In this document: positions 36,001 to 42,000 of the stretch, in pieces
How positions within the stretch are numbered: the stretch's first letter is position 1
How the letters are laid out: every line of letters begins with the position of its first letter
NCBI RefSeq assembly: GCF_016026235.1
Contig: NZ_CP065613.1
DNA length: 64,000 bases
Reading direction: 5' to 3' (one strand)
Origin: Escherichia coli
GTDB lineage: Bacteria > Pseudomonadota > Gammaproteobacteria > Enterobacterales > Enterobacteriaceae
Position numbers: made by a program

Positions 36001-39000
36001 CTACGATATCACCGCTTCCAGCGATGGCCGTGTGGTAGATAAAAGCTGGGTATCTCGCGTGGCGGAAGTGATCGACATTCCGTTCTGTGTGGCGGGTGGG
36101 ATTAAATCGCTGGATGACGCCGCCAAAATTCTTTCCTTTGGCGCGGATAAAATTTCCATCAACTCCCCTGCGCTGGCGGACCCGACGTTAATTACTCGCC
36201 TGGCGGATCGCTTTGGCGTGCAGTGTATTGTGGTCGGTATTGATACCTGGTACGACGCTGAAACCGGTAAATATCATGTGAATCAATATACCGGCGATGA
36301 AAGCCGCACCCGCGTCACTCAGTGGGAAACACTCGACTGGGTGCAGGAAGTGCAAAAACGCGGTGCCGGAGAAATCGTCCTCAACATGATGAATCAGGAC
36401 GGCGTGCGTAACGGTTACGACCTCGAACAGCTGAAAAAAGTGCGTGAAGTTTGCCACGTCCCGCTGATTGCCTCCGGTGGCGCGGGCACCATGGAACACT
36501 TTCTCGAAGCCTTCCGCGATGCCGACGTTGACGGCGCGCTGGCAGCTTCCGTATTCCACAAACAAATAATCAATATTGGTGAATTAAAAGCGTACCTGGC
36601 AACACAGGGCGTGGAGATCAGGATATGTTAACAGAACAACAACATCGCGAACTGGACTGGGAAAAAACCGACGGTCTGATGCCGGTGATTGTGCAACACG
36701 CGGTATCCGGCGAAGTGCTAATGCTGGGCTACATGACCCCGGAAGCCTTAGACAAAACCATCGAAAGCGGTAAAGTCACCTTCTTCTCGCGCACTAAACA
36801 GCGACTGTGGACCAAAGGCGAAACGTCTGGCAATTTCCTCAATGTGGTGAGTATTGCCCCGGACTGCGACAACGACACGTTACTGGTGCTGGCGAATCCC
36901 ATCGGGCCAACCTGCCACAAAGGCACCAGCAGCTGCTTCGGCGACACCGCTCACCAGTGGCTGTTCCTGTATCAACTGGAACAACTACTCGCCGAACGTA
37001 AATCTGCCGATCCGGAAACCTCCTACACCGCCAAACTGTATGCCAGCGGCACCAAACGCATTGCGCAGAAAGTGGGCGAAGAAGGCGTGGAAACCGCACT
37101 TGCAGCAACGGTACATGACCGCTTTGAACTGACCAACGAGGCGTCTGATTTGATGTATCACCTGCTGGTGTTATTGCAGGATCAGGATCTGGATTTAACG
37201 ACGGTAATTGAGAACCTGCGTAAACGGCATCAGTGAGTTGCAGGCTGAGCAGGTGTGATGTTGTTGTCACACCCGGAGCCATTGCCCGATGCGCAAGCTT
37301 ATCGTGCCTACACATTATCTCAACACACGTAGGCCGGATAAGATGCGCCAGCATCGCATCCGGCAAAAAAAACGGGCATGGTGTCACCACCCTGCCCGTT
37401 TCTCTTAAATGCACAATAATATTATTTCGCGTTGTAATTACGCAGCGCGTTACGACCAAGCACAATCCCCGCGCCAACCATGCCGCCCAGCAGCACAGCC
37501 AGAATCAAGGTAATTGCTTTCTTCGGGCTATCACGACGAATAGGTAACGTCGGTTTCATCACATAGCGGTAAGCATGAATATCAAGATCACCAACTTTTA
37601 AGCTTTCGATATCCAGCAGGTTTTGACGTGTCTGATAGTAGTTTGGTGAGAACACCAACGGACGGGTCGCCTCGTGCTTAATCATCGACTCCAGCGCTTC
37701 GCTCCCCAAAAGGAACAACGTATCTTGTGTGATATCTTCGCCAGTCTGTTGAATCTGCGGTTTTGTCACCTGCGCCTGATTCGCATACTGCAACGCTTCC
37801 TGAATCTGACGGATACGCAGATCTTTCTGCTCCTGCGCAACCACTTCCTGAGTTCTCAAAGAATCCTGCAAGTTTTTCATACGCAGCGCGATGTTGTCTT
37901 TCAGGTCTTTTTCCAGCTCTACATTTACCTGGTCGTCAACTTGCTGGATATACTTCGCCAGCTGTTTCTGCGCACCTTCAGGTGTTTTACCAACATAAGA
38001 CACCGCTAAAGGTAATGACTGATTTTTAACGGTAGGCTCAATGGTCAGCTTTTCTGCTTCTTCCTGGTTATCCAGCGTTTCCGCTAATGCTGAAAATGCA
38101 GTGCTGTAACGTCCGATAAGTGAAGCCTGAATGTCGGAGACTTTCGGTACTGCCGGACCGTAAATCACATTCATCGCGTTGGTATAACCAGCGATTTGCC
38201 CCACATCAGGTTGAGTAACGATAGCTGTTGAAGTCCACTTTTCTTTGGCAACGGCCAGATACCCTATAGCCAAGGCAATAGCCACAATGACAGAAATGAT
38301 GATAGTCATCTTGCCACGCCATAGTTGGACCAGTAAATCAATCAAATCAATCTGTTCCGGGTCATGGTTTTGCCCAGAAACATTATTATTTTCTACTCTC
38401 ATCATTACCCTAACGGACGAAATAATTTTAAGTCGCCATAGTTTAGCGATAATCGCCATAAATGCTATAGGATAAATGATAAAAACAATGAATTATCACA
38501 AAGAAAACAAAAGACAATCAGGGCAAAAATCGCCCTGATTACAAGATGTTAGTCGCTGCCGAAGAGATCGCGGGTGTAGACTTTATCTGCCACATCCTTA
38601 AGCTCTTCTGCCATACGGTTGGAAATAATGAGGTTGGCCTGTTGTTTGAAGGTGGTCTAATAGTCAATTTAGAACAGCTTTGATTGTAAAACGAGCACGT
38701 TACCAGAAAAAACAGCTAAGTTTAGAACTGATACCGATTATCTTTTTTTCTTGTCTAACGGTATGATTTAACTTTCAGTTATGCCAGATGAAGATTGGCT
38801 ATATTCTAGCCTGAGCGAGGATTATAAATGAAATTTCTGGTTACGGGAGCTGCTGGCTTTATCGGTTTCTATATAAGTAAACGGCTTCTTGCAGCTGGTC
38901 ATCAGGTTGTAGGCATTGACAACTTAAATGATTATTACGATGTCAACCTCAAACAAACACGACTTGATTTACTCAAGCACGACAATTTCAGTTTTTATAA

Positions 39001-42000
39001 AATTGACCTGGCCGATCGCGAGAAAATGGCGGTACTGTTTGCAGACGAGCGGTTCGATCGCGTAATAAACCTCGCTGCGCAAGCCGGTGTACGTTACTCC
39101 CTTGAAAATCCCAATGCATATGCAGATGCAAACCTGATTGGATTCCTGAACGTACTGGAAGGATGTCGCCATAATAATGTTCAGCATCTACTCTACGCTT
39201 CCTCCAGTTCTGTTTATGGCATGAACCGCAAGATGCCTTTCTCTACAGATGACTCTGTAGATCATCCTGTTTCGCTTTATGCAGCAACTAAAAAAGCGAA
39301 TGAACTCATGGCCCATACCTATTCTCATTTGTATGGCTTACCGACCACAGGGCTGCGTTTCTTTACGGTTTATGGTCCATGGGGACGTCCGGATATGGCA
39401 CTATTTAAATTCACTAAAGCCATGCTGGAAGGTAAAAGCATTGATGTTTACAACTTCGGCAAAATGAAGCGTGATTTTACTTATATTGATGATATTGCCG
39501 AAACTATTATTCGCTTACAGGATGTTATTCCAGAAAAAGATCCACAGTGGGCTGTAGAAACAGGCTCGCCTGCAACAAGTTCAGCACCATATCGTGTCTA
39601 TAACATTGGTAATAGTTCGCCTGTAGAGTTGATGGACTATATCAATGCGTTAGAAGAGGCTCTGGGTATTGAAGCCAACAAAAATATGATGCCTCTCCAA
39701 CCCGGTGATGTACTGGAAACCAGTGCTGATACAAAAGCACTGTATGACGTAATAGGATTCAAACCCGAAACGTCAGTTAAAGAGGGGGTAAAGAACTTTG
39801 TAGAATGGTATCGTAACTTCTATAAAGTTTGATTTTACAAAACCATAAGAAAAGGCCCTAATTTATTAGGGCCTTTTCTTAGAATGAAACAAAATAATTA
39901 ATCATTGCCAAACAAGTCGCGAGTATAAACTTTATCTGCTACATCAGCCAGATCGGCAGACATACGGTTAGAAATAATAACATCAGCTTCTTGTTTGAAT
40001 GCATCCAAATCACGTACCACGCGCGACCGGAAAAAATCGTCCTCTTTCATCGCTGGCTCATAAACGATTACAGGAACGCCTTTCGCCTTGATTCGCTTCA
40101 TAATACCCTGAATCGAGGAAGCACGAAAATTGTCTGAACCACTCTTCATAATCAAACGATAGACGCCAACAACTTTCGGTTTACGTGCAAGGATAGAATC
40201 GGCAATAAAGTCTTTTCGCGTGCGGTTGGCATCAACAATTGCCGAAATCAGATTATTCGGCACAGATTGATAGTTTGCCAGTAACTGCTTGGTATCTTTC
40301 GGCAGACAATAACCTCCATAACCAAATGACGGATTGTTGTAGTGATTACCGATACGCGGATCAAAGCAAACCCCCTCAATAATCTGGCGGGAATTAAGCC
40401 CCAGACTTTCAGCATAACTATCTAGTTCATTGAAATAAGCTACACGCATCGCCAGATAGGTGTTGGCAAAAAGTTTAATCGCCTCAGCTTCCGTTGAGTC
40501 AGTAAACAACGTTGGAATATCTTGCTTAATAGCACCTTCTTGTAATAATGCTGCAAAACGTTCAGCGCGTTCAGACTGCTCACCAATCACAATGCGTGAT
40601 GGATGCAAGTTATCATAAAGTGCTTTCCCTTCGCGTAAAAACTCCGGCGAAAAGATCACATTTTCAATACCAAATCGTTCTTTAATGGACTCTGTAAAAC
40701 CAACAGGGATAGTTGATTTTATAATCATTACAGCGTTGGGATTAATTTCTGTCACATCACGGATGACCGCTTCCACGCTTGAGGTATTAAAATAATTTGT
40801 TTTTGGGTCATAATCGGTAGGCGTGGCAATAATAACGTAATCGGCATTTTTATACGCGTCATACTTATCTGTCGTAGCGCGGAAATTGAGCTCTTTAGTC
40901 GCCAGATACTCTTCAATCTCCTTATCAACAATCGGTGACAGCTTCTTGTTAAGCATGTCCACTTTGGCCTGAACGATATCCAATGCCACCACTTCGTGAT
41001 TTTGCGCAATCAGAATACCATTTGAAAGACCAACATAACCTGTACCTGAAATTGTTATTTTCATTAGCTCTGACTTCTTCCGATTAAACATTTAGAGTGG
41101 TCATTAATCCACCACCATAACTTCATCTACTGCGGGATTTTTAACGCTGATGTAGATGAACAGTCAAGGCAGCGATCCTGCTGTGCGGCTCTGTATTATA
41201 TCTCTTTTTTAACCCAAAATTATAAAAAAAGTCCATAACCTGCCGCTTTGTATAATAAAAAAGCCCGGAGGATTTCTCCTGAGGGATCCCCAGAAAATTT
41301 AGTAAACCATTATCATATTGGTATACCGTTGCTGTAGAACTTTCAGCCCTGCGTCAAGTGACAGTGTGTTTAGTATGAGTGGAGAATGTCGAATCACATT
41401 CTCCGCCAGTTTTAATAACGAGATGACTCGCCTGTGCTTCACTGTATTTGCCTGATATTTATGATGTATCCCTTTGTTTTCCAGGCTGAAACCGCTTAAC
41501 CACATAATGATACTGGCTAATGTTGCGATCAGACTCAATACCGTGACCCGCCCGGATGAATGACTGGCACCAAACCGTAGTCCAAATCCCCAGCGAGGAT
41601 TTTTTTCATCCCTGAAATTTTGCTCAATTTGCATTCTACGGCTGTATAATTTCATTACCTGTTTTGGCGAGAACTCAGTACTGTTTGTGAAAATAAACCA
41701 TGGTGATTTCCCGGCAGTACGAGCTTTAGCCGTCACCGATGGTCTGGTTGCTCTTTCCTTCGAGCGTTTAAATCTACGACCTTTAGGCTTACTTTTATAA
41801 AGATAAAAATGCCCTTCATGTTGTGCATTTTTATCTCGACCCAGCAGGCCTTCACCTAAATAAATTGCTGTCGTTGATGCTTTTGTGCCTGAGTCCGACA
41901 CCTTTTCCCAGCCATTACCAACATTGTAATAATGATTGCCCAGTACCCGGCAAATATAGGTCCAGCCACGGGAGCGGAGCTGTTGGAACCATCGCCCCTG

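Follow-up and report, generated by a model that had tools for sequence, protein, structure and literature searches.

The window analysed here, a stretch of 64,000 nucleotides (nt) of Escherichia coli DNA (NCBI RefSeq assembly GCF_016026235.1, contig NZ_CP065613.1), holds a complete gene for UDP-glucose 6-dehydrogenase, ugd, and also a second, short piece of ugd that lies next to wzzB, the gene for the O-antigen chain-length regulator. This stub, 107 nt long and located at 38549..38655 on the minus strand, is a true recombination scar which keeps the ancestral wzzB-ugd junction. With a probability of roughly 80%, I consider it the scar of a single old replacement of the resident ugd by a foreign pair of genes, gla and a divergent ugd (denoted ugd* in the following). 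Coordinates and strands are those of the window throughout, and K-12 serves as the reference for the common E. coli locus.

The stop codon of the stub, TAA on the minus strand, occupies 38549-38551, and homology to ugd reaches 38655, which leaves the last 35 codons (stop included) and 2 nt. There is no in-frame start codon, but the reading frame is open and encodes a Ugd C-terminus like that of K-12. A sequence-only reading of the window had already recognised this remnant, although it gave about 100 bp and some 30 codons, starting from 38551. It had also assigned the stub to a ugd allele different from the intact gene, and this holds: the stub is 91.6% identical (98/107 nt) to the ugd of K-12 and 96.3% identical to the full-length ugd of strain MS 16-3, and is therefore of the common E. 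coli type. The divergence from the intact ugd* of the window is likewise real, if slightly larger than the 75% identity first quoted, with 72.5% identity over 102 BLAST-aligned nt (E = 3e-10) and 70.1% over all 107 nt.

The stub occupies the usual site of the intact gene: towards wzzB its flank is native, and towards gla it adjoins non-homologous DNA. The window is collinear with K-12 from wzzB over the spacer into the 3' end of ugd (37355-38655, 86.3% identity), and the 253 nt of spacer plus stub match K-12 with E = 1.8e-81, far past chance. As had been proposed, the ancestral junction is thus retained, including the rho-independent terminator hairpin of ugd (38514-38542, minus strand, 13 pairs followed by a T-run), which lies in the native intergenic region of 149 bp (38400..38548, minus strand) delimited by the same collinearity. 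Homology ends abruptly at the junction 38655..38656, which reads ...TTGTTTGAAGGTGG / TCTAATAGTCA... and is placed by alignments with K-12 and with O113, O139, O143 and O155-family loci. No decayed ugd homology was found past 38655 in a comparison with the next 90 nt of the K-12 gene (z = 1.2, a fraction of 0.16 of the shuffles).

The adjacent wzzB (37422..38399, minus strand; NCBIfam NF012015, 595.7 bits, cut-off 267) is a normal E. coli allele. It is 95.4% identical to that of the gla-less strain MS 16-3 and 86.6% to that of K-12, and the wzzB genes of O113 and O91 share 97.7% identity. Strains carrying the junction have a wzzB from an ordinary E. coli allele class which also occurs in gla-less strains, and the sequence of the remnant follows the full-length ugd alleles that are linked to this class. 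Another explanation would be an in-place duplication of ugd after which one copy decayed, so that stub and intact gene would be paralogues. Two ugd-derived sequences are indeed found on one strand, separated by 1.2 kb, but the stub is 92-96% identical to other E. coli ugd genes while the intact copy reaches 70-75% and is closer to Citrobacter, and neither the intervening spacer nor gla has a counterpart in E. coli. This identity pattern refutes a duplication, to which I attach virtually no weight.

The foreign-type DNA extends from 38656 to the terminator of gnd, about 2.65 kb without the insertion sequence (IS) described below. It begins with a gla upstream region of 172 bp (38656..38827, plus strand), followed by the intact gla itself (38828..39832, plus strand, 334 aa), which encodes a putative UDP-glucuronate 4-epimerase of the extended SDR type. 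Behind gla is a palindromic hairpin (39846..39881, 16 pairs then a T-run, with a BLAST match to itself on the opposite strand), which likely serves as a two-way terminator between gla and the convergent ugd* (39898..41064, minus strand, 388 aa). The product of ugd* matches the Ugd model NF011631 over its full length (residues 1-388 of 388; 798.6 bits, cut-off 757). Both gla and a second, complete ugd had been noted before, and are confirmed here. The spacer between ugd* and gnd (left part 41065..41278, right part 42583-42616, minus strand) holds the gnd terminator hairpin, which is interrupted by the IS.

That the gla-ugd pair is foreign-type DNA is supported by its sequence relationships. The ugd* gene is 74.7-75.5% identical to common E. 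coli ugd genes (75% to K-12), 76-78% to those of Enterobacter and Kluyvera, and 79-80% to those of Citrobacter; I regard it as foreign-type because it is closer to Citrobacter than to E. coli. The copies in other carriers of the block are 95-99.9% identical to it. Neither gla nor its upstream region has a counterpart in K-12-type loci. Not counting the IS, the spacer between ugd* and gnd measures 248 bp, equal to the length in K-12, but at 49% identity the two are effectively unrelated except at their ends, and among block carriers and a mosaic O91 strain the spacer is 92-99.7% identical. The G+C content of the block is 37-47%, against 52-59% in the his operon; I did not use this as evidence of foreignness, since wzzB and the native spacer are low as well.

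The first 31 nt of the gla upstream region, those next to the junction, differ among the junction types discussed below. From about 38700 onwards the region is conserved with the upstream DNA of Citrobacter and O111-type gla genes, and BLAST homology to Citrobacter sp. FP75 begins at 38737. In a multiple alignment the conserved stretch reads ACCAG..AAAA...GATA.CGATTA.CTTTTTT...CGGTATGAT, and 38700-38827 is presumably a promoter or regulatory region of gla. The best match of the Gla protein in the PDB is 5u4q (E = 1e-189), labelled dTDP-glucose 4,6-dehydratase by its depositors, followed by the group of 6zl6 and 6zla (E = 1e-43), which I take to be the UDP-glucuronate 4-epimerase of Bacillus cereus. 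No NCBIfam equivalog was reached by the protein, and its RefSeq name is 'NAD-dependent epimerase'. A role in the conversion of UDP-glucuronate to UDP-galacturonate is suggested by homology together with the adjacency to ugd and the linkage to the O-antigen locus.

To see how common the scar is, I surveyed 5,426 complete E. coli genomes. A 261-nt probe of the junction found matches in 5,307 of them, yet in only 274 does the match run across the junction. In the sampled genomes with an annotated intact ugd, every match stops at probe positions 131-136, which correspond to 38650-38655 of the window, and in about 5,000 other genomes the bases homologous to the stub are the 3' end of a full-length ugd. 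The possibility raised earlier, that the remnant is part of an intergenic element conserved in all strains, is refuted by this distribution. The junction stands beside at least 10 different O-antigen clusters (O113, O139, O143, O155-family, O115, O116, O159 and three unnamed). The order wzzB, pseudogene, NAD-dependent epimerase, ugd, gnd was seen in O113:H21, O139:H1, D10 (O143-family), the O155-family and Z1322HEC0009 (an unnamed cluster); block and scar of the O113:H21 genome are 97% identical to those of the window. Five further carriers (O115-, O116- and O159-family and two unnamed) were chosen by a match of at least 97% to the gla region, their wzzB-gla junction being unread; 274 of the 278 genomes with this gla have the junction. 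All junctions that were read have the remnant broken off at one and the same nucleotide of ugd.

The junction occurs in three variants. The undeleted type a, found in the window, O113 and O139, accounts for 65 genomes; the commonest variant, which lacks 17 bp across the join (D10, Z1322HEC0009), for 181; and type c of the O155-family, with a different 30-nt patch, for 38. Copies of the block have diverged by 1-3% in gla and by up to 4-5% in ugd*. Because of the single breakpoint, the many O types, the internal divergence and the secondary erosion, I conclude that one old event was followed by inheritance and homologous exchange, and not that the locus was recently remodelled. Of the recent remodelling claimed by the sequence-only reading, what stands is the recent insertion of the IS; a scar carried by 274 of 5,426 genomes, with 4-5% divergence of ugd* and three junction variants, is not recent.

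The same reading had proposed that everything from ugd through the O-antigen cluster was replaced in a recent single transfer, bringing gla and the O143-type cluster into a freshly remodelled locus. In favour of such a transfer are the confirmed remnant and foreign-type gla-ugd* block, the low G+C content of the O143-type cluster (29-33%), the presence of an IS in the locus, and the divergence of the first 200 nt of gnd, beside the cluster. However, the foreign-type DNA ends at the gnd terminator, and the gnd gene between block and cluster is of E. coli type. In all carriers examined gnd is of the ordinary type, with 91-97% identity to K-12. The junction in 274 genomes beside at least 10 clusters, the divergence of 2-5% among block copies and the three junction variants equally disagree with a recent transfer, and nothing shows that the O-antigen cluster came in with the gla-ugd block. 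In addition, the O143 cluster of the window is 99-100% identical to that of D10 but left of about 39100 the two differ, and therefore the cluster moved between backgrounds which already carried the block. This explanation is largely refuted, and I give it a slim chance.

The gnd gene of the window (42617..44023, minus strand) is an ordinary E. coli-type allele with 91.8% identity to K-12, except for its first 200 nt: in 100-nt windows its identity to K-12 is 87-100% from nt 201 on and 75-77% for nt 1-200. This 5' end (approximately 43824-44023, codons 1-67) shows 75-77% identity to every E. coli, Citrobacter and Enterobacter gnd with which it was compared. The 5' end of gnd, which adjoins the O143-type cluster, is mosaic.

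I reconstruct the events as follows. An E. coli ancestor with the order gnd-ugd-wzzB-his would have taken up a fragment from another enterobacterium with the order gnd-ugd-(convergent) gla-wzz. At the gnd end the fragment most likely joined by homology, in or beyond gnd, because gnd is 82-87% alike between genera, and this join would since have been erased by recombination within the species. At the wzzB end the join was probably illegitimate: codon ~354 of the resident gene became fused to 172 bp from the spacer between wzz and gla of the donor. Lost in this step would have been the first 1,060 nt of the old ugd together with the ugd-gnd spacer; the last 107 nt of the gene, its terminator, wzzB and the region upstream of wzzB were not reached by the deletion and therefore survived. 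The incoming ugd* presumably took over the synthesis of UDP-glucuronate, and gla would have added the step to UDP-galacturonate for O antigens with galacturonic acid, among which the O143-type of the window is provisionally put. The block of remnant, gla and ugd* would then have been inherited, and moved by homologous recombination to many O-antigen clusters; the insertion of the IS into the gnd terminator is a separate and very recent event. In this history the alignments show directly what the remnant is, where it breaks off, how far the foreign-type DNA extends, that the junction is shared and that the IS is recent, whereas the direction of the replacement, the illegitimate join at one end, the type of donor and the function of gla are inferred.

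Several points weigh against this reconstruction. The type c junction is the first: its remnant ends as in the others, but then come 30 nt that bear no relation to the 31 nt of type a, with homology returning at about 38687, and a simple model with a single event does not explain the patch. Second, no donor, and hence no donor junction sequence in which a microhomology might show, was found among one genome per species. Third, the right end of the original import is unrecoverable, so gnd and the O-antigen cluster could have entered as well and have been replaced later. Finally, the enzymatic role given to gla comes from homology and context only.

For the type c patch three origins are conceivable: it may have been added secondarily, it may be filler DNA, or it may stem from a second illegitimate join that used the same microhomology. 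Among the loci compared no match was found for the patches of type a and type c (30-31 nt), nor did type c match the reverse complement of type a by eye. The last of the three options amounts to a different history, in which the junction arose repeatedly because the end of ugd near ...GAAGGTGG is a preferred site of homology-facilitated illegitimate joining, and type c is an independent acquisition from a related donor. The identical remnant end followed by 30 unrelated nt and then by resumed homology would suit this history, and so would the remnant and wzzB of type c, which are the most divergent among carriers (90.7% and 88-89% identity, respectively). On the other hand, two illegitimate joins within 1 nt in a gene of 1,167 nt are improbable, the type c block is 96-97% identical to that of the other carriers from about 38687 on, and there is no donor sequence that shows a shared microhomology. 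A repeated origin seems to me no more credible than a recent transfer. The O155-family strains, whose junction lies at 4963-5010 of locus L004 and at 13122-13189 of locus L088, show two further peculiarities: genes of the O8/O9-family mannan type lie beside the block on the wzzB side, and a wzx gene and an acetyltransferase gene are located between ugd* and gnd.

Candidate donors were sought by scanning one genome per species with the Gla protein, and none exceeded 87% identity in protein or 80% in nucleotide sequence. The best relatives of gla and ugd* reach 77-80% at the nucleotide level, with 86-87% for the Gla protein. The order wzz-gla-ugd-gnd with convergent gla and ugd exists in Citrobacter sp. 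FP75, C. werkmanii, Enterobacter cloacae, E. asburiae and an Enterobacter metagenome-assembled genome, and Kluyvera has gla-ugd-gnd; in none of these loci is there a ugd stub between wzz and gla. They resemble the E. coli block in the convergence of gla and ugd, the shared terminator and the position of the pair between wzz and gnd, and differ in lacking the stub. As the nucleotide identity of their blocks to that of E. coli is just 74-80%, none of them is the donor, which is therefore not among the genomes scanned. Upstream of gla, E. coli has kept 172 bp, compared to wzz-gla spacers of 232-319 bp in those genera, which fits a break inside the donor spacer. A similar arrangement is presumably also found around the ugd/uge (gla_KP) genes of Klebsiella pneumoniae.

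Two E. coli strains serve as natural controls, as they have other gla-ugd pairs, Citrobacter-like and Enterobacter-like respectively, at the same position but no remnant. In O111:H- 11128 (locus L005, 3715-8931) the gla resembles that of C. werkmanii (88.5% identity) and contains an internal stop, gnd is Citrobacter-like (90.6%), and wzzB is foreign (65%); the absence of a stub together with the foreign wzzB places the left crossover beyond wzzB. Strain 101EVA (locus L006, 1349-8863) has an Enterobacter-like ugd (87%) and gnd (90.8%), with pieces of IS30 and IS600 between wzzB and gla. Where the left crossover is beyond wzzB or associated with IS elements, no stub is left.

Alternatively, the remnant, terminator and spacer may have been kept by selection as a regulatory element for the expression of wzzB. 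The retention of the ugd terminator and of the entire wzzB upstream spacer could be read in this way, as could the Ugd C-terminal peptide, which is unchanged in most remnants of carriers. However, an unchanged peptide is equally explained by exchange with full-length alleles of the same wzzB class, in the commonest form a deletion has removed 17 bp where the remnant meets the join, and the copy in the window has two private amino-acid-changing substitutions (D to N and V to L). O111 and 101EVA, moreover, do without any remnant. A promoter scan of 38300-41300 found no promoter-like site in the remnant, the wzzB upstream spacer or the gla upstream region, with fewer sites than in shuffled sequences, and a search of 37000-45000 for known RNA families gave only a sub-threshold naRNA4 match and chance matches on the gla/ugd terminator. 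I find a regulatory role very improbable. The stub appears to be an inert pseudogene fragment, because its commonest form lacks the 17 bp, private substitutions have accumulated, and neither a promoter-like site nor an RNA family was found in it.

Recombination has continued to act on the block after the replacement. The window and D10 (locus L002) are 100% identical from about 39100 rightward and 77-98% identical leftward, and this step implies a crossover inside gla, at about 39000-39100. Both have the O143-type cluster, gnd, ugd* and the 3' two-thirds of gla in common at 99-100%. The ugd of the O91 strain E300082 (locus L095, 4001-5167), which has no gla, is of ugd* type from nt 1 to about 330 and of K-12 type thereafter, while the ugd* of Z1322HEC0009 (locus L087, 14362-15528) contains a K-12-like patch at nt 501-1000. 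Identity to ugd* among the ugd genes of the complete E. coli genomes is at least 90% in 277 genomes, 80-90% in 668 and 60-80% in 4,498. With 668 genomes in the middle band, many gla-less strains may carry pieces of ugd*. A more far-reaching picture would be that the block is one ancient, portable 'galacturonate supply' flank used by many O-antigen clusters, with the scar as its clonal marker, that pieces of ugd* have leaked into approximately 1/8 of the genomes, and that the type c junction reflects a preferred site or templated repair in homology-facilitated illegitimate recombination. I offer this as speculation with no better than an outside chance.

In all loci inspected, gla is located between wzzB and ugd, and sequencing of the O113 locus reportedly also placed an epimerase gene (wbnF) between ugd and wzz. 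Close copies of the gla of the window, with 95% identity or more, occur in 278 of the 5,426 genomes and distant homologues (60-80%) in another 255, so that gla is present in about 10% of complete genomes. It is a variable gene at the wzzB-ugd position, which calls for a small correction to the wording of a recent review of E. coli O antigens, where gla is placed at a conserved locus elsewhere (PMC7685785). Its variability, with this form in about 5% of genomes and other forms in another 5%, matters for in-silico serotyping and for the prediction of O-antigen chemistry.

Gene remnants have been interpreted as scars before. Remnants of wzy and of H-repeats were described in Salmonella groups B1, D1 and D2 (PMC3715488), O8/O9 gene remnants lie next to his in O89m E. 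coli (PMC6128206), and the E. coli review lists nine clusters with gene remnants and takes such anomalies to indicate relatively recent events (PMC7685785). The ugd stub resembles these known scars of O-antigen and capsule loci in being a truncated, non-functional piece at its original site beside imported DNA, and in informing about the order of events. Unlike them, it falls beyond the limits of the O-antigen cluster itself, on that side of ugd which faces wzzB; the gene from which it derives is of housekeeping type, and the incoming copy has assumed its function; and the stub is common to many serogroups instead of marking one. No published description of this ugd remnant was found in the literature searched, which took in PMC4379981 besides the three papers just cited.

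Nelson and Selander are said to have described intergeneric mosaicism of gnd around the E. coli rfb region, caused by hitch-hiking with O-antigen exchange. The present loci are alike in that foreign alleles and within-gene mosaics flank the cluster (the ugd of O91, gnd and gla of O111, gnd and ugd of 101EVA). They differ in that one end of the import is non-homologous here and has left a visible stub, whereas ordinary homologous mosaics leave none. The ugd stub is therefore a newly and precisely mapped example of a well-known type of feature, ordinary for an O-antigen locus; its practical value is modest and the understanding of how O-antigen loci evolve is unchanged. Nevertheless, the junction at 38655/38656 with its three variants is a precise marker for tracing an old transfer and the recombination that followed it. 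The homologous stretch in relatives is called by PGAP/RefSeq as a pseudogene, 'hypothetical protein, incomplete, missing N-terminus', and this anonymous entry can be renamed as a ugd remnant.

The IS between ugd* and gnd, an IS10-like copy according to the sequence-only reading, is indeed present and has IS10-like ends, but the element is ISEc60 of the IS4 family (41279..42572, minus strand, 1,294 bp; IS4-family transposase model NF033591, 360 bits) and does not mark the scar as recent. It is 99.9% identical to RefSeq copies annotated as 'IS4-like element ISEc60 family', and its ends are of the CTGA..ATCCCC type (CTGAGGGATCCCC... / ...GGGGATTCCTCAG). IS10 has 1,329 bp, a transposase of 402 aa and a 9-bp target duplication. 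It has in common with the element found here a DDE transposase of the IS4 family, CTGA..ATCCCC terminal repeats and a target duplication of 9-10 bp, yet an identification as IS10 was rejected, as the length of 1,294 bp and the match to ISEc60 leave a likeness in the ends only. The insertion site is the loop of the gnd terminator hairpin, and the target duplication of 9-10 bp, AGGATTTCT(C), flanks the element at 41269-41278 and 42573-42582. At this spacer ISEc60 is present in an assembly that is 100% identical to the window over 7 kb (locus L097), and missing from a relative that is otherwise 99.97-100% identical (locus L099), as well as from D10 and the O113 genome aligned over the spacer. Because it is missing from the near-identical L099, the insertion is recent; it is unrelated to the scar and the only recent element of the locus. 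A second copy of ISEc60 lies at 6906-8199, and the two copies are 99.8% identical to each other.

Beyond gnd, the O-antigen cluster of the window is of the O143-family, with 99.1% identity to the cluster of E. coli D10 over 15.8 kb. At the other end of the locus the his operon, on the plus strand, runs through hisIE, which ends at 37236. Between hisIE and wzzB, the sub-threshold match to the REP-like naRNA4 (CssrE) covers 37332-37401 with 53.7 bits, under the gathering score of 59.5, and the same stretch is the poorest part of the alignment among the window, D10 and O113, at 31-87% identity.

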